From the NCBI GenBank assembly GCA_964502885.1, contig CAZCXU010000001.1, positions 17,994-81,993 of the forward strand: DNA of 64,000 nt, read 5' to 3'. The translations under genes were made by a program, and so were the position numbers. Shown piece after piece: positions 38,145 through 62,413 of this stretch. The notes below the pieces were generated by a model that did not search any database, was not told the DNA's origin, and was given only the letters and a program-made list of their open reading frames with translations. Numbering within the stretch: the stretch's first letter is position 1; every line of letters starts with the position of its first letter. The stretch is from an uncultured Gammaproteobacteria bacterium (GTDB lineage Bacteria; Patescibacteriota; Microgenomatia; CAZETR01; Amesbacteraceae).

Positions 38145-39818
38145 TTAAAATCCAGGACCGTTGGCGTGGCCGATCAATGGCTCACGGGTACGTGATAAGC
38201 CGCTTTTACGGAATAAAGCGTGTCGACTGAGTGTCGAAAAAATAGTTCGAAGCTGTTCCACATGGAATAAATATGAAAAAAGCAAATAGACAGCAATGCC
38301 TATTGCCGAACTTATCACTGTTAGCATAAGCAATGGAATGGTGCGAGTGGTATCAAATACAAAACGGTCAAGCAAACGCATAGGAATCCAAAGACTTATG
38401 CCTGAGATCAGACCTGTCACAAATAACTTTCCTACTGAAGTAAAAAAATGAGATAAACTCCAGCGGTCCATTCCTATCCTTCCTGAGAGAATTTGAAAAA
38501 GGATAATACTCTCAATCAGTGATGATGCAGAAATACCTACAGCCAGTCCAAAAATTCCCAAAGACGTAAGATTTACAAGCAATACTGTTATTGATGTATT
38601 AAGAACTGCGCCTGCGATTCCAACCACTAAGGGAGTTTTTGTATCGTGGAGAGCGTAAAAACCACGAATAACCAACTGGGACACAGCTGAAAAGATTGAT
38701 GACAGACAAAGGATTGCAAGTAATTTCCCGGTAGTAATGGTGGCTATCCACGGAAATGACTTGGCACCGAAAACCAAGCGGACAATGGGAATGCGCAGAA
38801 CAATGAAGATAATGGTAATGGGGAGAGCCATAAAAACTATCTGCAAAAGCGAGTCCAAAAGGGTGCGGCGAAATGTCTTTTTGTCTGGTTCAGAAGCCAG
38901 GTGAGACAAAGCCGGAAGGGCAGCCTGGCCAATCGTGACTCCAAAAAGAGAAACAGGCAATGCGTACAGAAGTCTAGCAACATTAAACATCGTCAAAGAA
39001 CCGTGGCTCAATAGAGAGGCCAGTATTACAGCGACTAGCTGCTCTATCTGGTCGATACCCAAAGCCAATGCCCGTGGGGGCAACAGACGAAAAATTTCAA
39101 AAACATGAGGATTTCGGTAATTGAAAGATCTTATGGGGCGAAATCCCAATTTCACCGCAACGGGTATCTGTATGGCCATATGCAAAAATGCCCCAAATAC
39201 GACACCTATCGCCGGACCATAAATTCCCATAATTGGGGATAGAAATAGTGTGCCCATTATGATGCCGAGATTGTAAAGAATGGGAGCGATAGCAGGAATT
39301 AAAAAACGTTGATGCGATTGAATAATTCCTGTCATGAATCCGGAAATGCTGAAAAAAATCTGAGCAACTAACATCACACGAAGTACGCCAGTCATTGTGA
39401 TAATCTGCTGCTCGTTGAATCCGGGAGCTATTAGACGGCTGAGGGGATTGGCGAAGACAAAGATCAAGAGAGAAATTACCACAAATATCGCAAGCACCAG
39501 ATTCAGGGAAGTGCCAGCAACCAGCCAGAGATCCCTATCTTTTTTTGACAAAAGACGGGTGAATACCGGAATAAAAGCCGCTGAAAGAGATCCGATGACA
39601 AGTAATTGGAAGATCGTGTCCGGAATCACAAAAGCTGCGTAATATACGTCCAAAAGAGAAGTCTTGTCACCGAAGAACACACTGATAAGAAGCCTGGTCT
39701 TCAATAGTCCAATAAGATGCGAGGCAGCGAATGTGATCATAATAATGATGGCAGCCGAGAGAATGCTTGTCTGACGACGCAAAAAGAGACTACTTCCGTT
39801 TTTGAAAAGTTCTTTCAT
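38145..39818 (-). CDS. murJ: Lipid II flippase MurJ (MviN)
   Basis: Start at ATG 39818 (MKELFKNGSS...), 558 aa with 14 TM segments. The ORF-track extension to 40040 would run antisense across the whole of rpsT, so it was rejected. Confidence 0.8.
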   Translation of the reverse strand: MKELFKNGSSLFLRRQTSILSAAIIIMITFAASHLIGLLKTRLLISVFFGDKTSLLDVYYAAFVIPDTIFQLLVIGSLSAAFIPVFTRLLSKKDRDLWLVAGTSLNLVLAIFVVISLLIFVFANPLSRLIAPGFNEQQIITMTGVLRVMLVAQIFFSISGFMTGIIQSHQRFLIPAIAPILYNLGIIMGTLFLSPIMGIYGPAIGVVFGAFLHMAIQIPVAVKLGFRPIRSFNYRNPHVFEIFRLLPPRALALGIDQIEQLVAVILASLLSHGSLTMFNVARLLYALPVSLFGVTIGQAALPALSHLASEPDKKTFRRTLLDSLLQIVFMALPITIIFIVLRIPIVRLVFGAKSFPWIATITTGKLLAILCLSSIFSAVSQLVIRGFYALHDTKTPLVVGIAGAVLNTSITVLLVNLTSLGIFGLAVGISASSLIESIILFQILSGRIGMDRWSLSHFFTSVGKLFVTGLISGISLWIPMRLLDRFVFDTTRTIPLLMLTVISSAIGIAVYLLFSYLFHVEQLRTIFSTLSRHALFRKSGLSRTREPLIGHANGPGF

Positions 39819-39861
39819 GTGTGATATTATATGGCGGTTATATTGCAAATAATAGAAGGTT

Positions 39862-40098
39862 ATGCCGATATTACGAAACGCCATCCGCAAGCTGAGATCA
39901 GATAAGCGCAGATCAGCGGTCAACCAGAAAGTAAGAAGAAAAGCCAAGGAGACTGTTTCTTCGATGAGAAAAAAACCGACAGTAAAAACATTGGAATCCC
40001 TGTTTTCAGCTTTAGACAAAGCGGTTAAAGGTAGAGTCATTCACAAAAATAAGGCTGCAAGACTGAAGTCCCGACTTTCCAAGTTGATGAAGAAATAA
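39862..40098 (+). CDS. rpsT: 30S ribosomal protein S20
   Basis: 78 aa. MPILRNAIRKLRSDKRRSAVNQKVRRKAKETVSS...AARLKSRLSKLMKK is a typical S20. AGAAGG lies just upstream of the ATG. Confidence 0.9.
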   Translation: MPILRNAIRKLRSDKRRSAVNQKVRRKAKETVSSMRKKPTVKTLESLFSALDKAVKGRVIHKNKAARLKSRLSKLMKK

Positions 40099-40119: not shown

Positions 40120-40647
40120 ATGCCTGCCCACTCCAGAGTTAATCTATTGCCTCCCTCGGAGTTTGAACTGAGCTTTTGGGGTAGGTTTTTAAGATGGGCA
40201 GTAACTACCGGCAGATATATCATTGTGCTAGCTGAATTGTTGGTAATACTAGCGTTTTTGTCCAGATTCAAGCTGGATGAAGACTTAAGAAATATCAATG
40301 AGCAAATAAACGGGCAGGTAAATTTTCTTGAACGCACATACAGGCAGGAATCAGAGTTTCGACAGCTCCAAAATAAAATTGCTTTAACTAAAAAATATCT
40401 GAACCTGCGCCCCTCGCCCTATGAAAGCCTGGATTACCTTGACAAGAGGCTGCCCGATGAAGTGGTGATAAGAACATGGAATATTAATATGGGGGAGTTC
40501 TCCTTTTCTGCCGAAACACAGAATGAGAAGGCCATGGGTAAAATAATGGCTACGATGTCTGGAGATAAAAAATGGAAAAGCATTGACGTGACGCAACTAT
40601 ACGGTGAAAAAGTCTCAGGAATTAAATTTTCAATTACAGCCAAGTAA
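40120..40647 (+). CDS. PilN-like type IV pilus assembly protein
   Basis: 175 aa. The N-terminal RVNLLPPSEFE is the INLLP PilM-binding motif of PilN. A single TM segment follows, then a coiled-coil/ferredoxin-like periplasmic part. Confidence 0.55.
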   Translation: MPAHSRVNLLPPSEFELSFWGRFLRWAVTTGRYIIVLAELLVILAFLSRFKLDEDLRNINEQINGQVNFLERTYRQESEFRQLQNKIALTKKYLNLRPSPYESLDYLDKRLPDEVVIRTWNINMGEFSFSAETQNEKAMGKIMATMSGDKKWKSIDVTQLYGEKVSGIKFSITAK

Positions 40648-40652
40648 GTCTT

Positions 40653-41306
40653 ATGGCACTTGATTATAAAAGCAGTTTAAGCAGATACCGGAGGTATTTA
40701 CAGATGGTATCAAACAAACCACTGTGGACAGCCAGTCTGTGGGTAATTTTCTCTTTGGTACTGCTTATTGTGCTGGTGATATGGGCACTGCGTCCAACAT
40801 TAGTAACTATATCAGGATTGATGGGCAAGATAGAGAGTCAGAGAAACATCAGCAAACAACTAGAAGATAAAATCGCAACAGTGCAACAAGCGTTTGCAGA
40901 AATGGACTCAGTGGCTACGTCAATGCCGCTTTTAGAAGCAGCCGTCCCCGCTGAGGCTCAGTGGAATCAATTGGCCGGAGATCTGGAAAAAATTGCAACA
41001 GACAGCAGCTTGGCCCTCATAGGTATTACCATAGCAGAGATAGCAAATGATGTGAGTGAATTGAAGATTGACCCAGCGATGTCTGCTGCGTCCAGAGCAC
41101 AAATGCTACCTGCAGGAATTATTCCCGTTAGTTTTATTTTTTCAGCATCAGGGAATTATGCTGATGTAAAAAACGCAGTGCGGCAAATTGAATCTTTGGC
41201 ACGAAAGCCTCTGCTGCGTTCGGTTTCTATTACTCCAAACAAGGAAGGTAATCTGGATTTAACGATAATAGGTGAAGCAATATTTATTAAACCAAACGAG
41301 CCATGA
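40653..41306 (+). CDS. PilO-like type IV pilus assembly protein
   Basis: 217 aa. Short cytoplasmic N-terminus, one TM segment, a coiled coil and a C-terminal domain. It immediately follows the PilN-like gene. Confidence 0.45.
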   Translation: MALDYKSSLSRYRRYLQMVSNKPLWTASLWVIFSLVLLIVLVIWALRPTLVTISGLMGKIESQRNISKQLEDKIATVQQAFAEMDSVATSMPLLEAAVPAEAQWNQLAGDLEKIATDSSLALIGITIAEIANDVSELKIDPAMSAASRAQMLPAGIIPVSFIFSASGNYADVKNAVRQIESLARKPLLRSVSITPNKEGNLDLTIIGEAIFIKPNEP

Positions 41307-41521
41307 AAAAAAGAGGATTAGACAAGGATCTTGTGCTACTATTAATTACGACCTTGATTATGTTGTGTACCTGGGTAGGGCTTGAGGTCTATCGCTCGTA
41401 CGCACATAGCCCCGTAGAGCCCGAGGTGGAGAAACATCTAAAAATGCTTGATCCCACTTTGGATAAAACGGTGTTTTCTTTGTTATCAGAAGAGGAGAAG
41501 AACTCTGATGAGAAACCGTGA
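41303..41521 (+). CDS. Small single-TM protein, hypothetical
   Basis: 72 aa. TM helix LVLLLITTLIMLCTWVGL. Translationally coupled to the PilO-like gene. Its 3-prime end overlaps the next gene. Confidence 0.35.
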   Translation: MKKRGLDKDLVLLLITTLIMLCTWVGLEVYRSYAHSPVEPEVEKHLKMLDPTLDKTVFSLLSEEEKNSDEKP

Positions 41522-42983
41522 GATAAAAATTCCCACACTATTTGGACTGTTGCTGGCAATTGGCGGCCTGGCGAGTGGGATAGTGATGGTACAGAGTCAG
41601 CTGAGACAAAGAGCTGAGGCTGCATCGGCACTTGCACCTAACTCCGTTGTCATTTCAAATGTAACTGAGAATAGTTTTTCAGTGTCATGGACTACCGACA
41701 GGGCTGTAAATGGAAGAGTGGTGTTTTCAAAAAAGGGAGAGAGTGTGTCGAATACAATTGCAGATGATCGCGATCGAGCAAACGGATCGATTGAAACGTA
41801 CTTTACCCACTTTGTAACGGTTGATAATTTGGAGCCACAAACAGAGTATGAGTTTCAGATTAACTCGGGGGGGGAGTTTTTTGGAGTCACAAAAGACGTA
41901 CCGTATCAGATAGCCACTGCAAAGAAGATAGATAGTAAGCCAGATGCAGATGTGGCTTATGGTGAGATAAAGACAGCAACCGGGGAACCGGCGGTTGGAG
42001 CGCTAGTTTATGTTGAAGCTCCCGGAGGAATTGTCCAGTCTACTATCGTTACCAAACAAAGCGGATCTTTTGTAATCCCCTTGTCCACCGTGAGAAAAGC
42101 CGACTTGTCAGGATATCTAGATTATGACCGCTCAAACACTTTGATCACAATCCGAGTTGATAATGGGGCTTTGGGAAAAACCACAGCAACTCTATATACA
42201 TCAGATGATAGCCCTGTCCCTGAATTGGTTCTGGGAAATACATACGATTTTGCTTCCGAGACAGGGAACCGCCAAGAGACAAAATCGTCTGGCATGAACT
42301 ACTCAGATACCCAAACTGACACCCAGACTGAATCAGAATCCCAATCCATTTCAGTGCCTGTTACTGGCCTACAGCTTACTTCCCCCATGGATGGTGAGGG
42401 GGTTAATGCGAATATGCCCGTTATTATCGGGAAAGCGCCGGCAGGAACCGAAATAACTATTGAGGTCCACTCTGAAAATCAAATCAAAACAACTGTGGCC
42501 GCTGATGAAAATGGCACATTTTCATACAATGTAAGTACCCCACTTGAGCCCGGGGAACACACCATTACTATTTCGGCGGTGGTCGGAGGAGTGTTACAAA
42601 GAGTTACAAGAACTTTTACTGTCTATGCTGAGGGGGAAAGTTATTTGCCCGCTTATTCGGCGACTCCTTCAGCGACTTTGGCTCCCTCCATCTTTCCTTC
42701 CCCAACCATTACCAATACTCCACGGCCTACGGCAACCCCACGACCAACGGCAACACCAAGACCAACTAATACACCAAGACCCACAACAACCCCAAAGCCG
42801 GAAATAACTGTTACACCCACCGTGATCCTGCAACCGTCCCCCACTATTGAACCGATAATTTCTCAAGCCCCCGATAATTTGCCGGAGTCCGGCACTCTTG
42901 ACCACTCACTATTATTGATACTATTGGGAGTAGGATTGATACTTTCCGGCGTTTGGTGGCACAAGACTACGACTTTGCGGTAA
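41508..42983 (+). CDS. Secreted surface protein with FN3-like and CarboxypepD_reg-like domains, a Thr/Pro-rich linker and a C-terminal LPESG sorting signal
   Basis: Start at ATG 41508, with a GGAG SD 10 nt upstream (MRNREIKIPTLFGLLLAIGGLASGIVMV signal anchor). FN3-like region (SVSWTTDRAVNGRVVF...LEPQTEYEF). PT repeats TPRPTA TPRPTA TPRPTN TPRPTT TPKP. The C-terminus reads NLPESG followed by a 17-aa hydrophobic stretch and HKTTTLR. Confidence 0.7.
   Translation: MRNREIKIPTLFGLLLAIGGLASGIVMVQSQLRQRAEAASALAPNSVVISNVTENSFSVSWTTDRAVNGRVVFSKKGESVSNTIADDRDRANGSIETYFTHFVTVDNLEPQTEYEFQINSGGEFFGVTKDVPYQIATAKKIDSKPDADVAYGEIKTATGEPAVGALVYVEAPGGIVQSTIVTKQSGSFVIPLSTVRKADLSGYLDYDRSNTLITIRVDNGALGKTTATLYTSDDSPVPELVLGNTYDFASETGNRQETKSSGMNYSDTQTDTQTESESQSISVPVTGLQLTSPMDGEGVNANMPVIIGKAPAGTEITIEVHSENQIKTTVAADENGTFSYNVSTPLEPGEHTITISAVVGGVLQRVTRTFTVYAEGESYLPAYSATPSATLAPSIFPSPTITNTPRPTATPRPTATPRPTNTPRPTTTPKPEITVTPTVILQPSPTIEPIISQAPDNLPESGTLDHSLLLILLGVGLILSGVWWHKTTTLR
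42716..42799 (+). repeat. Imperfect 18-nt tandem repeat of about 4.7 copies, encoding (TPRPTx)n inside the surface protein
   Basis: ACTCCACGGCCTACGGCA / ACCCCACGACCAACGGCA / ACACCAAGACCAACTAAT / ACACCAAGACCCACAACA / ACCCCAAAGCCG. Confidence 0.6.
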
Positions 42984-43010
42984 AATTTGATTGTGAAGGA
43001 TATTGGGAAA

Positions 43011-43583
43011 ATGGCACCAATTAAGATCGGGTTGGATTTCGATGGGGTTGTGGCGTACAACCCACTTAGAGCGACCAGAGCTGTGGTTTCGTTTTTTAAA
43101 AAAAATGTTCTAAAAAAAAGAAAATTAAGTTTTTTTGTACCTAAAAACAAGGTACAAACATGGTTATGGATTATGCTGCATGAAAGCAGCCTGTTCCCTT
43201 CGGCCGGAAAGGGTTTACTTAGACAAATGTCAGGGAATCCGAGGTATGAATTTTATCTGATTACCGGCAGGTATGACTGCCTTGGCTTCCAAGTCAGAAA
43301 ATGGTTGAACAAGTTTGACATGGATGGAGTATTCAAGGAGATCTTTGTAAACGAAGAGAAAGAGCAGCCGCATTTGTTCAAATCGCGGATGATTGAGCAG
43401 CTGAATCTAGATGTATACGTTGAAGACAACTGGGACATAGTCAACTTTCTCAAAGACAAATTCGGGAAGAAAATTTATTGGGTATGCAACTTACTGGATA
43501 GACATGTGCATTACGAAAAAAAATTTCCGAGTTTAAAAGAAGCACTGGAAGACTGCCTGAGCCTAGAACCTAATGAGCCATGA
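43011..43583 (+). CDS. HAD-superfamily hydrolase, 5-prime(3-prime)-deoxyribonucleotidase-like
   Basis: KIGLDFDGVV is the HAD motif I DxDGV. About 190 aa. Start placed at ATG 43011, which has GAAGGA upstream. The ORF-track TTG at 42987 is possible. Confidence 0.5.
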   Translation: MAPIKIGLDFDGVVAYNPLRATRAVVSFFKKNVLKKRKLSFFVPKNKVQTWLWIMLHESSLFPSAGKGLLRQMSGNPRYEFYLITGRYDCLGFQVRKWLNKFDMDGVFKEIFVNEEKEQPHLFKSRMIEQLNLDVYVEDNWDIVNFLKDKFGKKIYWVCNLLDRHVHYEKKFPSLKEALEDCLSLEPNEP

Positions 43584-44692
43584 AGGTGTTGTTTAGTTTG
43601 AGTTATTATTTTCCATATATTTCCGGGCTGAGTGATTATGTCAAAAGATTAGCGGAGAGCATGTGTGGCACAGACATTTTGCCGGAGATAATTTGCACTA
43701 AACATCTTTCTTATCTCGCAGACAGAGAAATAATAAACGGTGTTTCTGTAAACAGATTAAATAAGATCGGAAAAATGGGAAAATGGATAGTACCCCTTTT
43801 GAACCCCTTAAGGATTTTCCGAATATTTCAAAATACCGATAAGGTTGTCATCAATCTTCCCCAACCAGAAGCGATAATTTATAGCATACTTGCAAAACTT
43901 TTGGGTAAAAAAATAATTGCTATTTATCATTGTGATTATGTTTTTGGATCTGATAATTTATCTTCAATATTAAACTTTTGTTTAAGATCAGTTAATTCAA
44001 TATGTCTAAATCTTGCGGATTCGGTGGTTGTTAACTCTTTTGACTATGCTTACAACTCCAGTCTGTTGAAAAATTACTTAAAGAAAGTACAGGAAATATT
44101 CCCCGTGATAGGTTTGGAGTCAGGCAAAAAAATTAATAAACGTTCTTGCTCTCCAAAAATGAGAATTGGATATTTGGGAAGAATTTCTCGTGAAAAAGGC
44201 ATACATATCTTACTGCGGGCAATAAGTTCATCGGGTAATGCTGGCAAATTTTCATTGATAATGGCTGGACCGCGAGATACCATAGGAGAGGAAAGCTACT
44301 TAAGAGAGATTAGCCAGTTAATCACTGATACGAATATTGATGTTAAGAATATGGGCTTCCTCCCCGATCAGGCAAAAAGAGATTTCTTTAACAATATTGA
44401 CGTGTTGGTAATTCCAGCAACAAATTCCAGCGAATCATTTGGAATAGTTCAAGTTGAGGCGATGCAGCACGGGATACCGGTATTGGCTAGTGACTTACCA
44501 GGAGTCAGACAGGTTATAGCTGAGACGGCAGCAGGACTGCTTGTAAAAGCGGGAGACCATTGCGACTGGGCTGAAAAGTTGGAGATGGCTTTAAGCTCAA
44601 TTCAAAAGTATCGCAAGAATACACATAAGGTGTTTAAGAAGTTTAATGGGCTGATAGAATTCAAAAAGTGGAAGACTTTGTTGAATTCTTGA
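43580..44692 (+). CDS. Glycosyltransferase family 4 (GT-B fold)
   Basis: 370 aa. ISREKGIHILLRA...ESFGIVQVEAMQHGIPVLASDLPG is the GT4 EX7E region. Confidence 0.8.
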   Translation: MKVLFSLSYYFPYISGLSDYVKRLAESMCGTDILPEIICTKHLSYLADREIINGVSVNRLNKIGKMGKWIVPLLNPLRIFRIFQNTDKVVINLPQPEAIIYSILAKLLGKKIIAIYHCDYVFGSDNLSSILNFCLRSVNSICLNLADSVVVNSFDYAYNSSLLKNYLKKVQEIFPVIGLESGKKINKRSCSPKMRIGYLGRISREKGIHILLRAISSSGNAGKFSLIMAGPRDTIGEESYLREISQLITDTNIDVKNMGFLPDQAKRDFFNNIDVLVIPATNSSESFGIVQVEAMQHGIPVLASDLPGVRQVIAETAAGLLVKAGDHCDWAEKLEMALSSIQKYRKNTHKVFKKFNGLIEFKKWKTLLNS

Positions 44693-46355
44693 AAATACTG
44701 ACACGGGGATGGTCATACACAGTATATGACTCATCGGCATAGTCATCTACTAAGCTTATGCCAATGGGACAATCTGATATGTTTTCCGCAATTCTGCCAT
44801 AATGAAGAGCCGGCGGTACAATACAGTAATTTATGAATGGAATGGGAAGATTGGGACGGGAAGTAAAAGAACGGACGTGAACAAATGGAGAATTGCCTAA
44901 AAACAGCTTAGAGTAAAAAAGACTTGATTGAGGGTAAAGCTTGGGAACTGTTGAAATGGAGCCATAAAGCCGGTTGCTTGATAGTATGAGATAGTCCAAC
45001 GAGGCTAGTTTTTTATCTAAATTTTGCCACTTTTCGGGACTATCAGGTTCATAAAAAGGCAATTCAATAACTTTAAAACGTCCGTCATTGATTAGCGGCA
45101 GACAGTCGTCCCAATACTCACAACTCAAAGTTGATCCTGATGGGATGTTCTCATAAATCCAGGAGCTGGCTTGAACCCGAGTGTGTGGAACAGAATAAAT
45201 AGACAAAAACATAACTCCAGGCAAAACCATAATTACTGAGGCCGCAACAGATAAACCCAATCGTTTTTTTGTAAACAAGGGGACAAGAAATGGGCCGGCG
45301 ATAATTGCAGCCAGAGGAAGAATTGGATAAAAATAACGCAACGGCCTAGCAAATTGAATATCCTGAAACACAAACAAAATTATGACCATTATTGCTAAGA
45401 TGCGAGGTAAAGAATCTTTACCCACAAGGAAGCGGGCGAGCGAGAAAAGGATAATTACTGAAAGAAACGGACCTACGCCGACAAAGAACAAATTGGGGAG
45501 AGAGTAAGTCAATGGTTTTGTTTCAAACCACTGAACGGACGGGGGAAACATTACTTCTTTTTTTTCTAAAGACTTAAGAGTGTTCAGATTTGCAATTATT
45601 TTCGGATTGGGATGTATTAAATTGATGAAGTAATATGGTGCAGCTAGGCGAAAAGTGATTAAGCTCGATAATCCAAATAGAAATAAATTAATCACCACAG
45701 TTTTCCACCCCACATCCCGCTTTTTAATAAGTAACAAAAGGACGAAAAAAGGGGTGAATGCAATGGCTGAAACTTTGGAGGCAAGTGCGAGGGCGAAAGA
45801 CGCTCCTCCCACTACAGACAACCATCTTTGAGAAGTGTTTTGAGAAAGACGCAGGAGGAGATAGAGTGCAAGCAACAAAAAGGACACCAGAAAAGTATCT
45901 ACTGCAAAAAAGTGCGACAACTGGATGGGAATAACCAATGACGCATATACAAATGCCGACAACATACCACTTTTCCAGCTGGAGAATATAAATCTTGCAA
46001 CAAGAAAGACCAAAATGACGATAACGGTATCCAGTACCGCTGAGATACTTCGACCTACCAGCGGTAGGGAAAAATATGAGTCCATCCCAAGAACTGAAGC
46101 GAGCGATTTTGTCAAAATAACTGGGTACGTACCATAGACATAGAAATCGTGTCCCGCATTGTGAGGATTGCTTTTAGATCCGGACGTGGACAGGTAATCC
46201 GATAAGGAAGATGGAAGATTTATCGACTGACTGACCATGACCAAAAAACGTTCATCTGGATGAAGATGTTGCCCCTGGTCCCAGTTCAATCCCCAAAAAC
46301 GACTAATGACAACGAAAAGCAGCAATAGTGCCCAAGATAACACTTTCATCCTCAT
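44661..46355 (-). CDS. GT-C membrane glycosyltransferase, PMT/ArnT-like (GT39/GT83 family)
   Basis: 564 aa, polytopic. The first extracytoplasmic loop carries HPDERFL, the DE motif of PMT/ArnT enzymes. Translationally coupled to the upstream membrane gene by a 4-nt overlap. Confidence 0.7.
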   Translation of the reverse strand: MRMKVLSWALLLLFVVISRFWGLNWDQGQHLHPDERFLVMVSQSINLPSSLSDYLSTSGSKSNPHNAGHDFYVYGTYPVILTKSLASVLGMDSYFSLPLVGRSISAVLDTVIVILVFLVARFIFSSWKSGMLSAFVYASLVIPIQLSHFFAVDTFLVSFLLLALYLLLRLSQNTSQRWLSVVGGASFALALASKVSAIAFTPFFVLLLLIKKRDVGWKTVVINLFLFGLSSLITFRLAAPYYFINLIHPNPKIIANLNTLKSLEKKEVMFPPSVQWFETKPLTYSLPNLFFVGVGPFLSVIILFSLARFLVGKDSLPRILAIMVIILFVFQDIQFARPLRYFYPILPLAAIIAGPFLVPLFTKKRLGLSVAASVIMVLPGVMFLSIYSVPHTRVQASSWIYENIPSGSTLSCEYWDDCLPLINDGRFKVIELPFYEPDSPEKWQNLDKKLASLDYLILSSNRLYGSISTVPKLYPQSSLFYSKLFLGNSPFVHVRSFTSRPNLPIPFINYCIVPPALHYGRIAENISDCPIGISLVDDYADESYTVYDHPRVSIFKNSTKSSTF

Positions 46356-47965
46356 AGACAGTTGCGGGAGACTGAGTAAATTTTCTGATTCCCTAACGGA
46401 GAGATGTAATCCGCAATAAACTCATCATTCCAAAGGGGCCAATTTACAGGAAGAAAGTCTTCAGGTTGAGTATTCAGCTCGACATAGTCAATTGATCGTG
46501 TGATCAAGCGGTTGCAGGCATCATGTTTGGATGTTGAGGAATAAATTGCTGCTGTATCATTTTCCCTATCAGTCTGATCATATCCGTAAGACCACGTGAA
46601 GTAAGGATAACCGTTATATATTTTCCTTCCGGCCAAAGAAGCCGGATGGTAAAACCAAGTACTGTTTAAGACGACAGAGTCAGCGGCAGTCTTGAGGAGA
46701 AAAAAATTTGCAACAGGATCGCGATTGTAATCGGGGATGTGAAGACGAATATCATTTTTAATCGGAAAATAATCTACAACACCGCCAGAGATCAAGGCGA
46801 CAAATATGGTAGTGGCTAGAATCTTGTATCTTGTGTCCCTATGCAAAAATTTAACAATCAAGTTGGCTGAAAAAACTCCTGCAATAGTTAAGAAGAAGTT
46901 AAGAAGTTTGTGGTTGTTTATAATATCCGGGGACAACTGAAATGTATAAGCCAACAAAAAAATCGTAAGAGCCGGAAGAATAATCAATCTTGAGCATTTG
47001 GGAGCAAAATAAAGACCAACTGGCAAAAGAACAAAATGCAAACCATAGTTGTAAATCGCGTACTTAGCCAACGAGAATATAGTTATCGGCGGTGGTGTCA
47101 AAAAACCAAAGTTAAGGGAGACTGACGAAGACACGTTAACGGTTAATAGATATAGAATTAACCAAGGGATAGCTCCCAACAGGGATACAAACAAAAACAA
47201 ACGCTCCGGACGCAGAATGAGAGCCCACAAATAAAAGACAGCGCCAATTATGAAAGCGGCCTGATTGAGCAGTAATAAACTTCCAAGCAGAAAGCCGGAT
47301 ATCAATTTGCTGCGAGTGTTTGGGATATATAGCAAATAAACAAGGATAATTGTGGTGGCGAATGCCAATCCCAAATGCCTCTGGTTGGTAAAAATGTTAA
47401 GATTCCAAAAGGCAGAAACTTCTCCTCCATCCCAAGGACCAAATGAGACAAATTTTGAACTGTGAATTAACTGATCGAGATATCCAGATAAAGATGAAGC
47501 GCTCTGAATAAATATGGGTAAAGTAAGAGAGGAATTAAAAAAAATAAACACCATAGCCACGATCCCTACAAGAAATGACCGAAAAAGACGAGACGCAAAA
47601 ATTCCCAAACCCAAAGCGAAAGCACATAACCCCAATGCGCTTTGAACATTAAGGGCAATATCAATCCTCAACCCTAGTCGCTCAAGCACCCCAACAAAAA
47701 GATAAAAAAGATAGTGGTACCTGATTGGCTCTCCTGGAAAAAGTGGATACTGGGGCGGCCAGTTGACGGCAGCAGAAAATGAACGAATTAGGGGTATGTG
47801 ACTACCAAAGTCACTGTAAGCTTTTGAGGCAATTAGCAGATCTCCGTCATCCGAATAGGTAAAAGTATGAAACATTAACCAAAAACAAAAAATAAATACT
47901 GCCAGGATGGCAAGTGGCCACAATATATACCTACTGTTATGTGTAAGCTTTTTCAACATCAACAT
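46352..47965 (-). CDS. Polytopic membrane protein, putative GT-C-type glycosyltransferase of unknown family
   Basis: 537 aa. At least 12 TM segments in the N-terminal two-thirds and a soluble C-terminal domain. It is the first gene of a 2-gene operon with the GT39-like gene. Confidence 0.45.
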   Translation of the reverse strand: MLMLKKLTHNSRYILWPLAILAVFIFCFWLMFHTFTYSDDGDLLIASKAYSDFGSHIPLIRSFSAAVNWPPQYPLFPGEPIRYHYLFYLFVGVLERLGLRIDIALNVQSALGLCAFALGLGIFASRLFRSFLVGIVAMVFIFFNSSLTLPIFIQSASSLSGYLDQLIHSSKFVSFGPWDGGEVSAFWNLNIFTNQRHLGLAFATTIILVYLLYIPNTRSKLISGFLLGSLLLLNQAAFIIGAVFYLWALILRPERLFLFVSLLGAIPWLILYLLTVNVSSSVSLNFGFLTPPPITIFSLAKYAIYNYGLHFVLLPVGLYFAPKCSRLIILPALTIFLLAYTFQLSPDIINNHKLLNFFLTIAGVFSANLIVKFLHRDTRYKILATTIFVALISGGVVDYFPIKNDIRLHIPDYNRDPVANFFLLKTAADSVVLNSTWFYHPASLAGRKIYNGYPYFTWSYGYDQTDRENDTAAIYSSTSKHDACNRLITRSIDYVELNTQPEDFLPVNWPLWNDEFIADYISPLGNQKIYSVSRNCL

Positions 47966-48040
47966 ATTCTAACCCGGGAATGGCAACTAATGAACTATTT
48001 ATGGTCATATCAAAATAGTATGACTTGATATCTCACTCAA

Positions 48041-48073
48041 ATATCGGACATTTTGTCTTCTGTTCGCTATAAT
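48041..48073 (+). promoter_or_regulatory. Promoter module upstream of the YYY gene, homologous (about 27 of 32 positions) to the tandem module upstream of the FemAB pair
   Basis: ATCGGACATTTTGTCTTCTGTTCGCTATAATT compared with ATCTGACATTTAGTTTTGTGCTCGCTATAATT. The -35-like GGACA is followed by a 17-nt spacer and TATAAT at 48068-73. TATAAT is 6 nt before GTG 48080. Confidence 0.45.
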
Positions 48074-48079
48074 TAAACG

Positions 48080-50179
48080 GTGGAATACGGCGAATTGTTT
48101 AAGTGGTGGGCAACAGTGTTTATTCTGGGGTGGGCGGCTTGGCCCTTGGCCAGCAAATTGTTTGAGAGCTTTCCAGGACGTGGGTATTTACTGGCCAAGG
48201 GTATGGGTTTAATACTAGTAAGCTTCGCCGTCTGGGTACTCGCCAGCCTGAAAATTGCAGAATTTGGAGTATCTTCAGTGTGGTTTTTTTGTCTTTTAAT
48301 GGCAGTTTTGGCATGGACACGAATGAAAAATCCCCTAACCAAGAATTGGCGTGAGGTCATGTGGTTGGAGATGATTTTTGCGATCGTATTTGTAGGGTGG
48401 TCCTGGATAAAAGCTCACGAACCGAGCATTAATGGGCTGGAAAAATTTATGGATTATGGTTTTGCCATGGCGATTAATAACTCTACACACTTTCCACCTC
48501 CGGATATCTGGTTCTCCGGACAACCGATTAACTACTATTACTTCGGACATCTGATGTTGGCAGTGTTGAGTAAGTTGTCCACCGTGAATTTGGATTATGG
48601 TTTTAACTTGATGCTCGCTACTATCGCCGCCTTTTGTTTTACGATCTCATATTCAATAGGCCATTATCTGGCACGTTCCCTAGATAGGAGCAAACAAACG
48701 CTGTTGGCACTTCTGGTAGCAGTGCTGGTTACTTTTTCGGGAAACCTACATACTATTTATGCATTTACCAAGGGGTACTGGGGTGAGGAAAACCCGCCGG
48801 CGTTTTGGACAATTCTGGCGCCCTTGTCGGATCTAAGTCTATCTTTTGGGAATTACTGGTATCCAAATGCGACGAGGTTTATACCGTTTACAATCCATGA
48901 GTTCCCCAGTTATTCATTTGTGGTATCCGATATCCATGGCCATGTACTATCTATACCAGTAGCACTGCTGCTGATAGCATTGTTTTTAAAAATTTATCAG
49001 CAGAAGGAAAGACGTTCAGGTATAGATATTGCGGTATATGCATTTGGATGTGGAATTGCGTTTATGACAAACGCCCTGGATGGATTGATATACATATGCC
49101 TACTGGGATTTACAATAGCTGTCCAAGAATTTGAAATTTGGAGACAGACAAAAAAAGTTAATTACCCGGCACTGATCAAAATTGGAGTAGTGGGGACGGT
49201 AATGTTTTTTTTAACAACAGGATTATTTCTTGCAAACTTTGAATCGTTTGTCTCTGGGGTGGCAGTCAATTGTCCACCTGCGGCGTGGGTGGGCAAAAAA
49301 GTCGGCCCGCTCATATTTGAAACGGCAGATAAATGTCAAAAGTCCCCCATTTGGATGATGCTTATTCTTTGGGGATTTTTTGTATATAACTTTATCGGCT
49401 TGTACTGGCTTATAGACGAGAAAGAGCAATTCAGAAAGATTGCGATTATAAGTTTTGTGTTTTCAGGCTTGTTAATTCTATTCCCTGAATTTTTTTACTT
49501 CAAAGATATTTATCCACAACACTTCCGCAGTAACACAATGTTCAAACTTGGATATCAAGCTTTTATGCTCATGTCTATCTGGTCCGGATGGGTGATTGTA
49601 AAAATCTATCAGGTGAAACTTCGAACCTGGAAGCACAAGATATTTTTGATCGGAACTGTTCCCCTACTGGTATTGGTGCTTATTTATCCATATTTTTCGG
49701 TTAAATCATACTTTAATTCATTAAATGAAAATAAAGGCTTGTCGGGAACCTCCTGGTTACAACAAAAGTACCCAGAAAACTGGGCAGTCATTAGATGGCT
49801 ACGGCAGACGATAACCGATCCCCACACGGTGGTTTTGGAAGCACAAGGCGATAGTTATCAGGATCCGGTATCGGGAAAACCATATAACCAAATTTCCACC
49901 TTTACAGGACTGCCTACCGTTGCTGGATGGTTTGTACACGAGTGGCTATGGAGGGGCTATGAATCAATCGCTCTCAGGGCCGCTGATGTGAGAACCATTT
50001 ACGATTCCCCCGATATTGAGACTACTAGAACGTTAATAAAAAAATACGAGATCAAATACATAGTTGTTGGGGAAATGGAAAGAGAAAAATATCCGACGCT
50101 AAAACAGGAAAAGTTTGAAAAATTAGGAGGAAGAGTGGTTTATTCAGCGGGCAATACAAGCATCTACAAAATTGACTAA
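48080..50179 (+). CDS. YYY-domain (Chlor_Arch_YYY/DUF2298) polytopic membrane protein, GT-C/oligosaccharyltransferase-like
   Basis: 699 aa. More than 12 TM segments. Signature GQPINYYYFGHLM. Large C-terminal soluble domain. The apparent start is GTG 48080. Confidence 0.65.
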   Translation: MEYGELFKWWATVFILGWAAWPLASKLFESFPGRGYLLAKGMGLILVSFAVWVLASLKIAEFGVSSVWFFCLLMAVLAWTRMKNPLTKNWREVMWLEMIFAIVFVGWSWIKAHEPSINGLEKFMDYGFAMAINNSTHFPPPDIWFSGQPINYYYFGHLMLAVLSKLSTVNLDYGFNLMLATIAAFCFTISYSIGHYLARSLDRSKQTLLALLVAVLVTFSGNLHTIYAFTKGYWGEENPPAFWTILAPLSDLSLSFGNYWYPNATRFIPFTIHEFPSYSFVVSDIHGHVLSIPVALLLIALFLKIYQQKERRSGIDIAVYAFGCGIAFMTNALDGLIYICLLGFTIAVQEFEIWRQTKKVNYPALIKIGVVGTVMFFLTTGLFLANFESFVSGVAVNCPPAAWVGKKVGPLIFETADKCQKSPIWMMLILWGFFVYNFIGLYWLIDEKEQFRKIAIISFVFSGLLILFPEFFYFKDIYPQHFRSNTMFKLGYQAFMLMSIWSGWVIVKIYQVKLRTWKHKIFLIGTVPLLVLVLIYPYFSVKSYFNSLNENKGLSGTSWLQQKYPENWAVIRWLRQTITDPHTVVLEAQGDSYQDPVSGKPYNQISTFTGLPTVAGWFVHEWLWRGYESIALRAADVRTIYDSPDIETTRTLIKKYEIKYIVVGEMEREKYPTLKQEKFEKLGGRVVYSAGNTSIYKID

Positions 50180-51231
50180 GGTTTCCCCAAACTGGTGCTC
50201 ACGAAGTTAAAAATTTCAGTGAATTTTGAGTCTTTTGGAATGAGCACCCACTGATTCTGATATTTTGCCGAAAGAGGAGGATTGATCAAAAGCCCAGAAT
50301 CAATTAGCGAAATCTGACGAACGGGAGCACTTCGAAGTTTCATGGCCGCCTGAAAAAGTGTGGAATAGTAAGGGCTCTCAATGTCAGAGGAAACACTATC
50401 GGCAGCAAGAGCCACTAAACTTTTGTATATGGAGGTATTTTTGAGATTATTAAGCGACAGCAGTTTGTCGGCAAAACCCCTAAGAACTTTGGTCTGACGC
50501 TTTGAACGGGCAAAGTCGGTCCCCTCTTCCACGTCCTCTGAATGCCGGGAGCGAACAAACTTAAGAGCCATCTCTCCATCCAGATGGGCGTCCCCAGCCT
50601 CAAAGGTGATACTTTCATAACGACAGGAGTATTTAATATCACCCCCACAAGTGTCGTTTTCTCTACCAGGGATAGGATACAGATTGTCAGTAAAAGTCTT
50701 ATCTATGGTTATATCTACGCCGCCAATAATATCTATGGCTTTAGAAAACGTGGAGAAGTCTATGTTGAGAGCGAAATGAACCGGTTGATTTATTACCTCA
50801 GTGACTGCAGCTTTTGCCATAAGGAGTCCTCCAGCAGTTGCTGCCTTTTCATATCCAAAGAAATAGGCATGATTTATCTTTGCTTTAAGTGAGTTTACCC
50901 AGAGGTCGCGAGGAATTGGAATAAGAGCTATATCTGGGGAATTTTGATTTACAGAAATAAAAATCATAGTGTCCGAGAGATTTGATCCGTCATGGCCTTC
51001 GCCACCAGAACCAAGAATCAAGAAATTAGTACGACCACCCGACTGAGGAAGTGGGCGACCGGTTACCATTTCCCAAGTCAAATGTCGACCTGAGGTACGC
51101 TCAAAAAGAAAGTAACCACCGATTAGAACCGAGGCGGTAAGTCCTAATATGAGGATCCTTGCCAGCCAAACATGGGACAGCAATTGGCGTTTGAACCGAT
51201 TGTAAAAAGAACCAATTCTGCTAATCTGCAT
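50176..51231 (-). CDS. LytR-CpsA-Psr (LCP) family glycopolymer-to-peptidoglycan ligase
   Basis: Start at ATG 51231 (MQISRIG...); the ORF-track TTG at 51273 is less likely. N-terminal TM segment. LCP core TNFLILGSGGEGHDGSNLSDTMIFISV...IPRDLWV. Confidence 0.8.
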   Translation of the reverse strand: MQISRIGSFYNRFKRQLLSHVWLARILILGLTASVLIGGYFLFERTSGRHLTWEMVTGRPLPQSGGRTNFLILGSGGEGHDGSNLSDTMIFISVNQNSPDIALIPIPRDLWVNSLKAKINHAYFFGYEKAATAGGLLMAKAAVTEVINQPVHFALNIDFSTFSKAIDIIGGVDITIDKTFTDNLYPIPGRENDTCGGDIKYSCRYESITFEAGDAHLDGEMALKFVRSRHSEDVEEGTDFARSKRQTKVLRGFADKLLSLNNLKNTSIYKSLVALAADSVSSDIESPYYSTLFQAAMKLRSAPVRQISLIDSGLLINPPLSAKYQNQWVLIPKDSKFTEIFNFVSTSLGKP

Positions 51232-51250
51232 ATATGTATTTTTAAGGAGT

Positions 51251-53113
51251 ATGGAGATTTTAACCGAACTCAATCCAGTTCAACAAGAAGCGGTAAGTTT
51301 TGATACCAATACCCCGCTGGCGATTTTGGCCGGAGCGGGCAGCGGAAAAACTAGAATCCTTACACATCGAGTGGCATATTTTGTTAAGGAACTGGGGATA
51401 GACAGACAAAACATATTGCTACTGACTTTTACAAACAAAGCTGCAGGAGAAATGTTGTACCGGGTTTCGAAACTGACCGGGGATGCTGCCAGATCGGGCA
51501 TAGCGGGGGGGACTTTTCATAGCTTTGGCGTTAAAGTGCTGAGAGAGTTTGGTGGAGTTGCGGGAATTCGGGCAAATTTTTCTATATTCGATGAGTCTGA
51601 CCAGTTGGATACTATTAAAAGAGCGATGGAGTCTGGTGGAGTTGACCCTAAAACAGTCAAGCCATCAAGTGTGGCTGGGGCTATTTCGGAAGCAAAGAAT
51701 AACCTTATCTCACCCAATGACTATGCTTCTTTTGCGAGAGGGAGTTTTTCACAAGGAGTGGCAAAAGTATATCTTGTTTACGAACAAATGCTTCGCAGAT
51801 ACAATGCATTTGATTTTGATGATTTACTTGTCCGATCCGTACAACTCATCAAAACCTATCCACAAGTGAAACAGGCATTGCAGGAAAGATACACACATAT
51901 ATTGATTGATGAGTACCAAGATACGAATAAGGCCCAATATGAACTTACAAAGATGCTCGCCGAACCGGGGCACCTAACCGTAGTGGGAGATGCGTCACAA
52001 GCCATTTATTCATGGAGGGGAGCAGATTACAAAAATTTGCTGTATCTCAAACAGGATTTTCCGAACTTAAAAGTTATCCGACTGGAGCAAAATTATCGCT
52101 CTACACAAAACCTACTTGACGCGGCAAATGCCGTCATAGCGAAAAATACCTCTCATCCCATACTGGAATTGTGGACGGAAAATCCGACTGGGGAAAAAAT
52201 TAAAATAACTGAATACCCTTCTGAATACGAAGAAGCACGAGCCATAGCCGACGAAATCAATGTCCTTTCCCAGATGAAAAAGACTTCACTGCAGGATGTG
52301 GCGGTTTTGTATAGAACAAATGCGCAATCTCGGGTATTAGAGGAGGCACTGCTCCAAGCAGGCATTCCATATCACCTGGTGGGGGGTGTGAGATTTTATG
52401 AGAGAAAAGAAATAAAAGACGTATTGGCTTATGCAAAAATATTGGTAAACCCAAGCGATGAAGTATCCAGAAAACGAGCTGGGAAACTGGGCAAAGCTCG
52501 GTTGGCACGGCTAGAAGAGAAGAAAATTGATGTCACGCGATTTACCACTCTGGAAGTTTTATCTCAAATATTTAAGTTGACCGGGTATCTGGAAACATAT
52601 GACAGCAACAGCGAGGAGGACGCGGTGAGACTTGAAAATATTGACGAGCTTAAGAGCGTAGCTTTGCTGTATCCCAAGATCGATGAGTTCCTGCAGCAAA
52701 TTACTTTGACAGAAAAGGAGGCTAAGAAAAAAATGGGCAGATCAAGGAATGAAATGGGGGCTGTCACCATGATGACTTTACATGCTTCTAAGGGGCTTGA
52801 ATTTGATGTGGTTTTTCTGGTGGGAATGGAGGAAGGATTGTTTCCTCACAGCAGAGCATTAAACGACCCGGAACAGATGGAGGAAGAGAGAAGATTGTGT
52901 TATGTAGGGATGACCAGAACACGCAAAAAACTTTATATCACCTATGCCAGAAACAGGCTTATTTTTGGACAAAGATCGCCGGGGATCGTGTCCAGATTTG
53001 TGGCAGATATTCCAGAAAAAGTAATTGATAATTTCCAGGTACTTCTTACGGCAAAAAAAGTTGATCAAAGCTGGGGATTTGATGAAAACGGAGAGTGGCG
53101 GTGGCAACCTTGA
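51251..53113 (+). CDS. UvrD/PcrA-family DNA helicase, compact
   Basis: 620 aa. LNPVQQEAVS...LAGAGSGKTRIL (motif I), DEYQDTN (II), and the remaining helicase motifs, ending in the 2B/C-terminal region. Confidence 0.9.
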   Translation: MEILTELNPVQQEAVSFDTNTPLAILAGAGSGKTRILTHRVAYFVKELGIDRQNILLLTFTNKAAGEMLYRVSKLTGDAARSGIAGGTFHSFGVKVLREFGGVAGIRANFSIFDESDQLDTIKRAMESGGVDPKTVKPSSVAGAISEAKNNLISPNDYASFARGSFSQGVAKVYLVYEQMLRRYNAFDFDDLLVRSVQLIKTYPQVKQALQERYTHILIDEYQDTNKAQYELTKMLAEPGHLTVVGDASQAIYSWRGADYKNLLYLKQDFPNLKVIRLEQNYRSTQNLLDAANAVIAKNTSHPILELWTENPTGEKIKITEYPSEYEEARAIADEINVLSQMKKTSLQDVAVLYRTNAQSRVLEEALLQAGIPYHLVGGVRFYERKEIKDVLAYAKILVNPSDEVSRKRAGKLGKARLARLEEKKIDVTRFTTLEVLSQIFKLTGYLETYDSNSEEDAVRLENIDELKSVALLYPKIDEFLQQITLTEKEAKKKMGRSRNEMGAVTMMTLHASKGLEFDVVFLVGMEEGLFPHSRALNDPEQMEEERRLCYVGMTRTRKKLYITYARNRLIFGQRSPGIVSRFVADIPEKVIDNFQVLLTAKKVDQSWGFDENGEWRWQP

Positions 53114-61636: not shown

Positions 61637-62413
61637 ATGATCGATACACACTGTCATTTGACAGATCCGCAGTTGTTTGGCGAAAGAGATCAGGTAATAA
61701 AAAGAGGTGTGGAAGCAGGAATAAAAGGTTTCATAAATAATGGAGCCGGAACAGAGTCATCCATGCAGGGGATAAGAATCGCCGAAGAGTTTCCTGGGGT
61801 ATACACGACAGTAGGCATCCACCCTGAAGAAATTGCAGAATGGAAAAGACTTGGCGATACTGAAACCAAAAGAATTTTACTTGAATTGTGCAGTCACAAA
61901 AAAGTTGTAGCCATAGGCGAGGCTGGTTTTGATATTTATGAGACTACAACAGCCGCAGATGTTGAGGAACAAAAAAAACTATTTGAGATTAATGTGTGGC
62001 TAGCAGAACAAACTGGGTTACCTATGGTAATCCACAATAGGAATGCTGATACTGAACTAATCAGCGCTCTAAAAGACAGAAAGCTGACAGGACAACTACA
62101 TTGTTTTGTAGGCAGTGAAGAATATGCAGTAAAAATGATAAATATGGGTTTTTATGTTTCTCTCGGCGGAATTCTGACGTTTAAGAAATCAACTGCCCTT
62201 CGAGAGACGGCTAAAAATCTTCCCATTGAACGTATTCTTATAGAGACAGATGCTCCGTATCTAGCGCCAGAGCCACTACGCGGACAAAGAAATGAGCCCA
62301 AGAATGTTAAAATCGTGATGGAGGCTTTTGCCCAACTAAAATCGATCACACTGGATGAGGTCTCCAAAGTTACCCAGGAAAACGCCAGATGCCTGTTCCC
62401 AAAATTAATTTGA
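61637..62413 (+). CDS. tatD: TatD-family metal-dependent hydrolase (DNase)
   Basis: ATG 61637 gives MIDTHCHLTD, the canonical TatD HxH start. 258 aa. Confidence 0.9.
   Translation: MIDTHCHLTDPQLFGERDQVIKRGVEAGIKGFINNGAGTESSMQGIRIAEEFPGVYTTVGIHPEEIAEWKRLGDTETKRILLELCSHKKVVAIGEAGFDIYETTTAADVEEQKKLFEINVWLAEQTGLPMVIHNRNADTELISALKDRKLTGQLHCFVGSEEYAVKMINMGFYVSLGGILTFKKSTALRETAKNLPIERILIETDAPYLAPEPLRGQRNEPKNVKIVMEAFAQLKSITLDEVSKVTQENARCLFPKLI

Follow-up and report, generated by a model that had tools for sequence, protein, structure and literature searches.

A diverged DUF2298 paralogue of predicted GT-C fold and its neighbours in an envelope gene block of a Microgenomates genome

Glycosyltransferases of the GT-C fold include the oligosaccharyltransferases (OSTs) STT3, AglB and PglB of family GT66, the PMT_2-type enzymes of the GT39-GT83 kind (bacterial protein O-mannosyltransferase, Pmt, and ArnT), and the mycobacterial Aft and Emb proteins. 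In mycobacterial arabinogalactan several GT-C enzymes act ahead of a LytR-CpsA-Psr (LCP) ligase, and the streptococcal Pgf system, which consists of a GT2 enzyme (PgfS), an epimerase (PgfE) and two GT-C proteins (PgfM1 and PgfM2), O-glycosylates wall-anchored adhesins by a logic similar to that of the locus described here. This locus consists of three adjacent genes, designated A, B and C, in a stretch of 64,000 nucleotides (the window; contig CAZCXU010000001.1 of assembly GCA_964502885.1, positions 17,994 to 81,993) from a Microgenomates genome of the Patescibacteria. Gene A encodes a PMT_2-like protein, gene C a member of the family DUF2298 (Pfam PF10060; NCBIfam TIGR03662, Chlor_Arch_YYY), and gene B a protein that is homologous to C and lies outside current family models. 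The three products are read here, with a probability of about 0.7, as polyprenyl-phosphate-sugar-dependent envelope glycosyltransferases of which B and C form a functional pair, and this reading leaves the acceptor uncommitted. Literature retrieved for DUF2298, PF10060, TIGR03662 and 'YYY domain' consists of incidental mentions or concerns the unrelated Y_Y_Y sensor domain, with no functional study among it, and a search for Patescibacteria together with GT-C found nothing.

Fold and kinship of the three proteins

The initial annotation described three consecutive GT-C-like polytopic proteins at 44661-50179, and this description agrees with the coordinates, with the polytopy of the products, with the PMT_2 and DUF2298 matches, and with the models of B and C. 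A hydropathy scan finds 9-10 hydrophobic segments in each of A, B and C, and the predicted models have about 11 transmembrane (TM) helices in B and about 14 in C. The three are genuine genes; B has at least 846 homologues, with no Pfam domain among them, and C at least 4940. In the database versions B starts 14 codons further in and C 12 codons further in. B overlaps A by 4 nt, and because of this overlap B and A are taken to form one transcription unit (operon), from which C diverges across a gap of 114 bp with 33 % GC. The genes and the sites within them are as follows.

44661-46355, minus strand: gene A, PMT_2/GT39-like GT-C membrane protein, 564 aa, with a C-terminal soluble domain of about 170 aa
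46251-46256, minus strand: D34-E35 'DE' motif of A (HPDERF), directly after TM1 (coordinates by translation)
46352-47965, minus strand: gene B, protein of predicted GT-C fold, 537 aa, a diverged DUF2298 paralogue with about 11 TM helices and a C-terminal extracytoplasmic alpha/beta domain
46355-46753, minus strand: C-terminal soluble domain of B (residues 405-537), with TWSYGY (46580-46594) and the invariant pair C484/C536, resembling the archaeal AglB C-terminal core domain
46907-46933, minus strand: SPDIINNHK loop of B ahead of TM10; D347, H352 and N356 are invariant and equal D476, H481 and N485 of C
47702-47722, minus strand: RYHYLFY of B, degenerate counterpart of NYYYFGH in C, with only the first Tyr in common (Y83/Y152)
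47810-47812, minus strand: D52 of B, invariant Asp in the helix of the first extracytoplasmic loop (SDFG), aligned with the invariant D125 of C; candidate catalytic base
47966-48079, no strand: AT-rich divergent intergenic region between B and C, with one sigma-70-like match
48080-50179, plus strand: gene C, DUF2298/Chlor_Arch_YYY protein of predicted GT-C fold, 699 aa, with three N-terminal helices more than B
48452-48454, plus strand: D125 of C, invariant loop-1 Asp, aligned with D52 of B
48533-48547, plus strand: YYYFG signature of C, all five positions invariant
49502-49534, plus strand: KDIYPQHFRSN loop of C
49727-50176, plus strand: C-terminal soluble domain of C, containing HEWLWRGY (49937-49960); in structure it is near the C-terminal globular domains of AglB-S2 and P. 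furiosus STT3

Gene B has no credible match in Pfam or NCBIfam, and it does not reach the curated hidden Markov model (HMM) thresholds of DUF2298 (PF10060) or TIGR03662. Two alignments were used for comparison, one of 57 B-family members (A1) and one in the form of a 51-sequence C-family profile (A2). Positions invariant among the 57 B-family members include D52, Y83, H84, E95, N190, N194-Q195-R196, D347, N350-N351-H352-K353, C484 and C536. An AlphaFold2 model of B built from this alignment has a mean predicted local distance difference test score (pLDDT) of 94.6 and a predicted TM-score (pTM) of 0.93; in it the first external loop is helical and the C-terminal domain is of the alpha/beta type. 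Its closest structural neighbours are ALG12 (score 18.8), AftA (17.0, 442 residues aligned), STT3B (17.0) and ArnT (16.5), followed by DPY19 (15.2), PglB (15.1), AglB (14.8) and AftD (14.6); ALG9, Pmt4, PIG-M, AftB, ALG3, ALG6, PimE and EmbA, as well as GAB1 and PIG-U, are also among them. All 27 Foldseek matches of B at E <= 1e-3 are GT-C proteins, with DPY19 and STT3 at about 1e-8. Structure prediction had been named as the check on B, and it returned a high-confidence model whose best neighbours are exclusively GT-C, a result that C repeats; on these models both B and C are GT-C-fold proteins.

There is practically no chance that B is a transporter or some other non-GT-C polytopic protein. 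Peptide transporters are the sole matches of the B profile among solved structures, with a non-significant E of 0.04, and in the comparison of the B and C profiles with all PDB chains they stand beside other noise such as triosephosphate isomerase (E 1.7). In the Foldseek list of B, the MFS transporters all have E > 0.04 and TM-scores of about 0.1. A transporter or other non-GT-C identity is ruled out by the model of B, its structural neighbours and the Foldseek list.

Gene C is, by sequence, a regular member of DUF2298/TIGR03662. It matches DUF2298 with E 6e-90 (302.9 bits, cutoff 27.8) and TIGR03662 with E 1.5e-137 (460 bits, cutoff 300). The model of C has a pLDDT of 88.7, with ALG12 (19.2), AftA (18.0, 476 residues aligned), ArnT (17.9), AglB (17.8), Pmt4 (16.6) and STT3B (16.3) as neighbours, and its C-terminal domain alone matches two OST domains structurally. 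In both proteins the invariant loop-1 Asp, D52 of B and D125 of C, belongs to the helix next after the one equivalent to TM1, and the two residues align with each other. An invariant Cys pair occurs in each protein, C484/C536 in B and C398/C419 in C, and these pairs suggest an extracytoplasmic location.

The kinship of B and C extends over the full length of B. A search of the single C sequence with the B profile gives an end-to-end alignment at E 7.5e-4, hhalign of the two families gives 97.6 % probability (E 4e-12, 504 columns), and its global mode gives 99.0 % (E 1.8e-17). Nineteen positions are identical in the two families and at least 90 % conserved in each: D52/D125, S62/S131, P70/P139, G78/G147, Y83/Y152, N106/N176, N194/N263, H197/H273, N234/N331, W303/W425, D347/D476, H352/H481, N356/N485, F456/F608, W458/W617, G461/G626, Y462/Y627, R467/R633 and Y475/Y641. 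The counterpart in B of 'FPPPDIWFSGQPINYYYFGH' in C is 'WPPQ.PLFPGEPIRYHYLFY'. The loop-1 Asp, the first Tyr of the YYY motif, the D..H..N loop and the C-terminal W..GY..R are thus held in common with DUF2298/TIGR03662, whereas B fails both HMMs, has YHYLF in place of YYYFG (the YYYxG motif is absent and Y83 alone is common), does not have the three N-terminal helices found in C, and falls short of it by about 160 aa. The SPDIINNHK loop is a candidate for a second active-site element or a metal- or phosphate-binding site.

From these alignments B is judged to be an ancient and strongly diverged DUF2298/YYY paralogue beyond the reach of current family models; of the 57 B-family members one matches PF10060, at 2e-8, and none of the tested members except one has any Pfam or NCBIfam match. 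The suggestion that B might represent a new GT-C family without a recognisable motif is accordingly narrowed. What stands is that neither Pfam nor NCBIfam has a model for it and that no solved structure covers it, which is where its novelty lies; what falls is its separateness, as it is a branch of DUF2298/YYY (97.6-99 %, 19 positions). B fits best as a new subfamily, not yet modelled, within a known GT-C family that is functionally uncharacterised.

Gene A belongs elsewhere. It matches PMT_2 (PF13231) with E 1e-11 and 45.6 bits, above the gathering cutoff of 26.1, and PMT (PF02366) is matched too. Its DE motif, kept in A orthologues, is the acidic motif that PMT/ArnT-type GT-C enzymes typically have in their first loop, and a catalytic role is presumed for it from that family. 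Together these features liken A to the PMT_2 enzymes of GT39-GT83, bacterial Pmt and ArnT among them. Unlike bacterial Pmt, A scores only 24.2 bits against the equivalog model NF058602 (cutoff 800), and its C-terminal domain is conserved and its own. By its profile matches A is an ordinary PMT_2/GT39-like protein, distinct from the characterised bacterial Pmt. The B profile gives a probability of 0.6 % against A, so A is not a detectable paralogue of B and C; C is likewise without sequence relation to A.

The resemblance of B and C to OSTs bears on how they might act. In common with STT3, AglB and PglB they have a GT-C_A-type TM core and an extracytoplasmic alpha/beta domain of the OST C-terminal core fold, and they carry an aromatic-Gly-Tyr motif within that domain. 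They could be thought of as OST-like enzymes that transfer a preassembled glycan en bloc from a polyprenyl-diphosphate onto protein, for example the adjacent Pro/Thr-rich fn3/Big protein, with the AglB-like C-terminal domain binding the acceptor peptide. STT3, AglB and PglB dominate the Foldseek list of B, the surface protein with its Pro/Thr-rich stalk and sorting signal is conserved in synteny, and a MOP-family flippase, MurJ, lies nearby. The TWSYGY of B and the WLWRGY of C also recall, letter by letter, the OST motif WWDYGY, although B (TWSYGY) and C (EWLWRGY) are without its Asp, which is Ser in B and Arg in C. Set against this, no match to STT3 (PF02516) occurs in B, in C or in the 57 B-family members, neither B nor C has a sequence match to any solved OST, the letters WWDYG are not conserved, loop 1 has a single Asp in place of a DxD pair, TM9 and TM10 are joined by a short loop, the locus has no initiating phosphoglycosyltransferase, and fusions of B with GT2 domains (see below) indicate monophosphate monosaccharide donors. 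En bloc transfer is considered unlikely; by sequence B and C are not OSTs, yet they have the OST domain plan in common with them.

Synteny and fusions in related genomes

The B family is widespread, as an HMM scan of 1.84 billion cluster representatives (50 % identity clusters) finds it in 3121 clusters at E <= 1e-3 and in 1025 at E <= 1e-30. Homologues of B and C at about 50 % identity occur in Amesbacteria and in Gottesman-, Woese-, Levy-, Davies- and Shapirobacteria, and from these relatives the genome is placed in the Microgenomates class of the Patescibacteria. The initial annotation regarded the YYY signature as known mainly from Chloroflexi and Archaea, but the family is abundant in Patescibacteria. 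Gene order was compared in a sample of 80 genomic loci, of which 79 have a recognisable B gene and of which all those with a phylum-level name are Microgenomates. Many of the underlying metagenome-assembled genome records are titled 'uncultured Gammaproteobacteria bacterium' (L008, L014, L016, L019-L023 and many others) and have the Microgenomates-type gene order and B/C orthologues; these titles look like a placeholder or wrong taxonomy.

In all 47 loci with at least 6 kb of flank on both sides, B has a DUF2298 gene no more than 6 kb away. Two arrangements recur, written here with < for genes read in the opposite direction to B. Type 1, that of the window, runs LCP, C<, B, A, variable genes, GT4<, HAD<; type 2 runs MurJ<, small proteins, fn3/Big protein, FAD oxidoreductase, B, variable genes, C, LCP<. 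Both the B-C pairing and the tail-to-tail adjacency of C and the LCP gene are kept through the rearrangement. A orthologues of 44 % and 32 % identity are the next genes downstream of B orthologues. The variable slots hold PMT_2 or GT87-like GT-C genes, small GT2 genes, methyltransferases and short-chain dehydrogenase/reductase (SDR) epimerases, with small GT2 genes standing between B and C in relatives. The type 2 interval between B and C contains extra PMT_2 or GT87-like GT-C genes, small GT2 genes, methyltransferases and unannotated membrane proteins of about 560 aa (for example L017:11573-16578, L050:11642-14277), and contents of this kind are typical of surface-glycan diversification. Three GT-C genes in a row had been called unusual, a view that the sample reverses, as adjacent GT-C genes are the rule at this Microgenomates locus. 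In a Chloroflexi genome a DUF2298 gene is found beside PMT_2 genes (PMC8756737, appendix 2), and the association may reach beyond Patescibacteria.

An FAD oxidoreductase gene lies immediately upstream of B in 56 of the 79 loci and also upstream of an A-B fusion (L088). It belongs to the PRK07233 family and is HpnE/phytoene-desaturase-like (E 1e-122); the enzyme might modify the donor sugar or the polyprenyl carrier. It is seen among loci L016-L084 and in L088, with L035:6718-8004 and L004:15519-16790 as examples. A DPPRS-like UbiA gene adjoins the HAD gene in 8 related loci, and an SDR epimerase gene is present in six. The HAD-like gene has as partner in relatives either a GT4 gene of the window type or the DPPRS-like UbiA, and these pairings suggest that a phosphatase takes part in the synthesis of a sugar or lipid-linked sugar.

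Gene fusions give further information on B. Six of the 150 best cluster representatives are GT2-B fusions, whose GT2 part has a weak likeness to Dol-P-hexose, PpgS and ArnC-type synthases and to PgfS; with such fusions, monophosphate monosaccharide donors are the likelier kind. Weak matches to the PgfS model come from the GT2 parts of both the fusions and neighbouring genes. An A-B fusion (P0354) has the FAD enzyme ahead of it and a DUF2298 gene behind it on the same strand, and other B-family members carry C-terminal NHL propellers or a CBM_4_9 domain. Co-occurrence with DPM-like GT2 synthases had been put forward as a further check, and it is seen in relatives, as GT2-B fusions and GT2 neighbours, and not inside the window.

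The constancy of the pair could also mean that B is a catalytically dead GT-C scaffold that partners C, in the manner of PIG-U/GAB1 or of the inactive subunit of a heterodimer. PIG-U and GAB1 are non-catalytic subunits of the glycosylphosphatidylinositol (GPI) transamidase; they appear among the structural neighbours of B, which always adjoins C and in which the YYY motif is degenerate. A dead scaffold is nevertheless very improbable, for B keeps the loop-1 Asp and the D..H..N loop without variation and has both in common with C, and one GT2-B fusion (P0292) is solitary in its locus, with no DUF2298 gene in the 6 kb fetched on either side, which argues for a self-sufficient transferase.

Envelope block, donor and acceptor

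The favoured reading of A, B and C as polyprenyl-phosphate-sugar-dependent transferases takes its mechanism from established GT-C enzymology (ArnT, PglB, PMT and Aft/Emb), from which catalysis, donor type and topology are inferred. The donor would be a polyprenyl-phosphate sugar that a GT2 or UbiA-type enzyme assembles at the cytoplasmic side of the membrane before it is flipped, and each enzyme would transfer the sugar from its polyprenyl-monophosphate carrier to a cell-envelope acceptor at the outer face of the cytoplasmic membrane. The loop-1 Asp (D34/E35 in A, D52 in B, D125 in C) would serve as the catalytic base that activates the acceptor nucleophile, and in B and C the common D..H..N loop and the OST-like C-terminal domain may help to hold the donor phosphate and the acceptor. 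B and C would act as an obligatory conserved pair, either in sequential steps or as a heteromer, with A as an accessory third enzyme. The locus is part of a conserved envelope block of MurJ, PilO-like protein, wall-anchored Pro/Thr-rich surface protein, B-C, LCP and FemAB, which in the window has the order MurJ, small membrane proteins, fn3/Big protein, HAD-like protein with GT4, A/B/C, LCP, UvrD and two FemAB. Its members beside A, B and C are as follows.

38145-40040, minus strand: MurJ homologue, with the MurJ domain at residues 122-561 of 631
40653-41306: second small membrane protein after MurJ, PilO-like
41448-42983, plus strand: surface protein (fn3, Pur_ac_phosph_N and Big domains; Pro/Thr-rich stalk; LPESG; hydrophobic anchor; basic tail)
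42987-44692, plus strand: operon of HAD-like protein and GT4 glycosyltransferase, convergent with A, co-occurring with A in relatives
42987-43583, plus strand: HAD-like protein, 198 aa, HAD motif I GLDFDGVV (motif only, no HMM match)
43580-44692, plus strand: GT4 glycosyltransferase, 4-nt overlap with the HAD-like gene
50176-51273, minus strand: LCP gene (PF03816, E 4e-27), convergent with C, 4-nt overlap at the C end

The adjacency of C and the LCP gene is kept in both locus arrangements. At the end of the surface protein a Pro/Thr-rich repeat, TPRPTATPRPTATPRPTNTPRPTTTPKP, gives way to LPESG, after which come a hydrophobic segment and a basic tail; this end looks like a sortase-type wall anchor. 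Orthologues of the fn3/Big protein have the same design and adjoin B in many Microgenomates; a 60-residue window in which Pro/Thr/Ser make up 60 % or more occurs in 16 of the 36 orthologous open reading frames, and a strict [LIVN]PxxG-type motif in 17.

Two acceptors can be proposed. The first, which is speculative, is the Pro/Thr-rich wall-anchored surface protein at 41448-42983; a protein would go well with the PMT-like nature of A and with the OST-like domains that B and C have. In its logic the locus resembles the Pgf system, which has a donor synthase of the GT2 kind, a pair of paralogous GT-C proteins and a substrate anchored in the wall; the HMM matches that accompany this comparison are weak. 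The second candidate is a glycopolymer of the wall, or a lipoglycan, that the LCP enzyme encoded alongside could attach to peptidoglycan; the CBM fusion and the UbiA, HAD and epimerase genes of relatives suit such an acceptor.

A rival reading is an arabinan-like machinery modelled on mycobacterial AftA, Emb and AftD, in which B and C, with A, would be arabinofuranose or ribofuranose (Araf/Ribf) transferases that use polyprenyl-phosphate-pentofuranose to build a wall polysaccharide, which is then ligated to peptidoglycan by LCP. A HAD phosphatase, a UbiA and a GT-C enzyme make up the published three-component logic of pentofuranose transfer (PMC11127046), and the relatives with DPPRS-like UbiA beside the HAD-like orthologue match this combination, with the epimerase and the FAD oxidoreductase in the numbers given above and the LCP adjacency conserved. 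In the window itself the UbiA, the FAD oxidoreductase and the epimerase are absent and the HAD-like gene is paired with GT4 instead; elsewhere, UbiA is not nearby in most loci with the FAD enzyme, and that enzyme is HpnE/phytoene-desaturase-like (PRK07233) and not DprE1-like. Of the three-component system (PPPRS, flippase and GT-C), a UbiA-type polyprenyl-phosphate phosphoribosyltransferase with a HAD phosphatase beside the GT-C gene is seen in 8 related loci and not in the window. The GT2-B fusions, moreover, imply hexose-type donors at least in some members, and neither AftA, AftD and Emb nor GT136 of the three-component systems (PMC11127046) has sequence similarity to the proteins of the locus, the donor-pathway genes being absent from the window. 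Pentofuranose transfer is an unlikely reading of this locus.

Several points weigh against polyprenyl-phosphate-sugar-dependent transfer by A, B and C as well. The 64-kb window has no polyprenyl-phosphate-sugar synthase, whether small GT2 or UbiA, and no GtrA- or MATE-type flippase, and this want of an obvious donor synthase or small flippase is the main gap. The sole GT2 of the window (62389-63873) is not DPM-like. The literature retrieved contains no biochemical or genetic data for DUF2298 or the B family, and the adjacency of MurJ, LCP and FemAB is weak functional evidence because synteny here is generally frozen in the Candidate Phyla Radiation (CPR). A search of the window for the FAD oxidoreductase, UbiA, epimerase, small GT2, methyltransferase and further PMT_2 genes of related loci found none of them.

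The finding is no surprise in principle and serves as a pointer to a conserved glycosylation module of the Microgenomates envelope. It gives a fold and a family to thousands of 'hypothetical' Patescibacteria proteins, and it ties the uncharacterised DUF2298/YYY family to the GT-C fold and, via the C-terminal domain, to oligosaccharyltransferases. The B-C pair lies in the conserved core of very small genomes, near MurJ, LCP, FemAB and a wall-anchored surface protein, and this setting suggests that the Microgenomates envelope has extracytoplasmic glycosylation among its basic features. Concrete constructs for experiment are offered by the GT2-B and A-B fusions, and DUF2298 in culturable Chloroflexi, clostridia and archaea offers genetic entry points. 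A bolder and rather improbable proposition is that DUF2298/YYY and the B family make up a third, OST-related branch of GT-C enzymes that combines a TM core with an AglB-like peptide-binding core and acts as a general machine for surface-protein glycosylation in Microgenomates. Here the substrate of the obligatory B-C pair, joined in many lineages by A and the FAD enzyme, would be the Pro/Thr-rich stalk of the adjacent sortase-anchored protein, and DUF2298/YYY and B would then be a new class of bacterial protein glycosyltransferases, evolved from or alongside an OST ancestor.

Transcription signals and other genes of the window

A sigma-70-like match (CGGACA-17-TATAAT) lies at 48045-48073 on the plus strand, ahead of C, whereas a search of the B strand of the intergenic region found no promoter match. 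Promoter-like matches in the surrounding 8 kb number 16, compared with 18.8 +/- 5.5 in shuffled sequences, and are not enriched; a terminator scan is likewise not enriched over shuffles. The divergent promoter of the initial annotation therefore keeps its divergent layout and its 114 bp, with matches no more frequent than in shuffles, and we infer it from the layout alone.

The window as a whole covers the conserved core of a small genome, with genes for FtsK, RNase J, PNPase, IF2, NusA, EF-G, EF-Tu, SecY, DnaK/GrpE/HrcA and LepA and a ribosomal-protein operon. The MurJ homologue at 38145-40040 (minus strand) has an N-terminal extension of about 120 aa ahead of its MurJ domain. Between MurJ and the surface protein (40120-41521, plus strand) lie three small membrane-protein genes, whose products measure 175, 217 and 72 aa; the second has a weak PilO match, and the position of the first two is conserved across Microgenomates. 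The GT2 at 62389-63873 (plus strand) is a protein of 494 aa (Glyco_trans_2_3) that is hydrophobic in its C-terminal part, has no match in NCBIfam and is no obvious polyprenyl-phosphate-sugar synthase. A GH39-like glycoside hydrolase gene is found at 34970-36322 (plus strand), with hrcA-grpE-dnaK on one side and lepA on the other.

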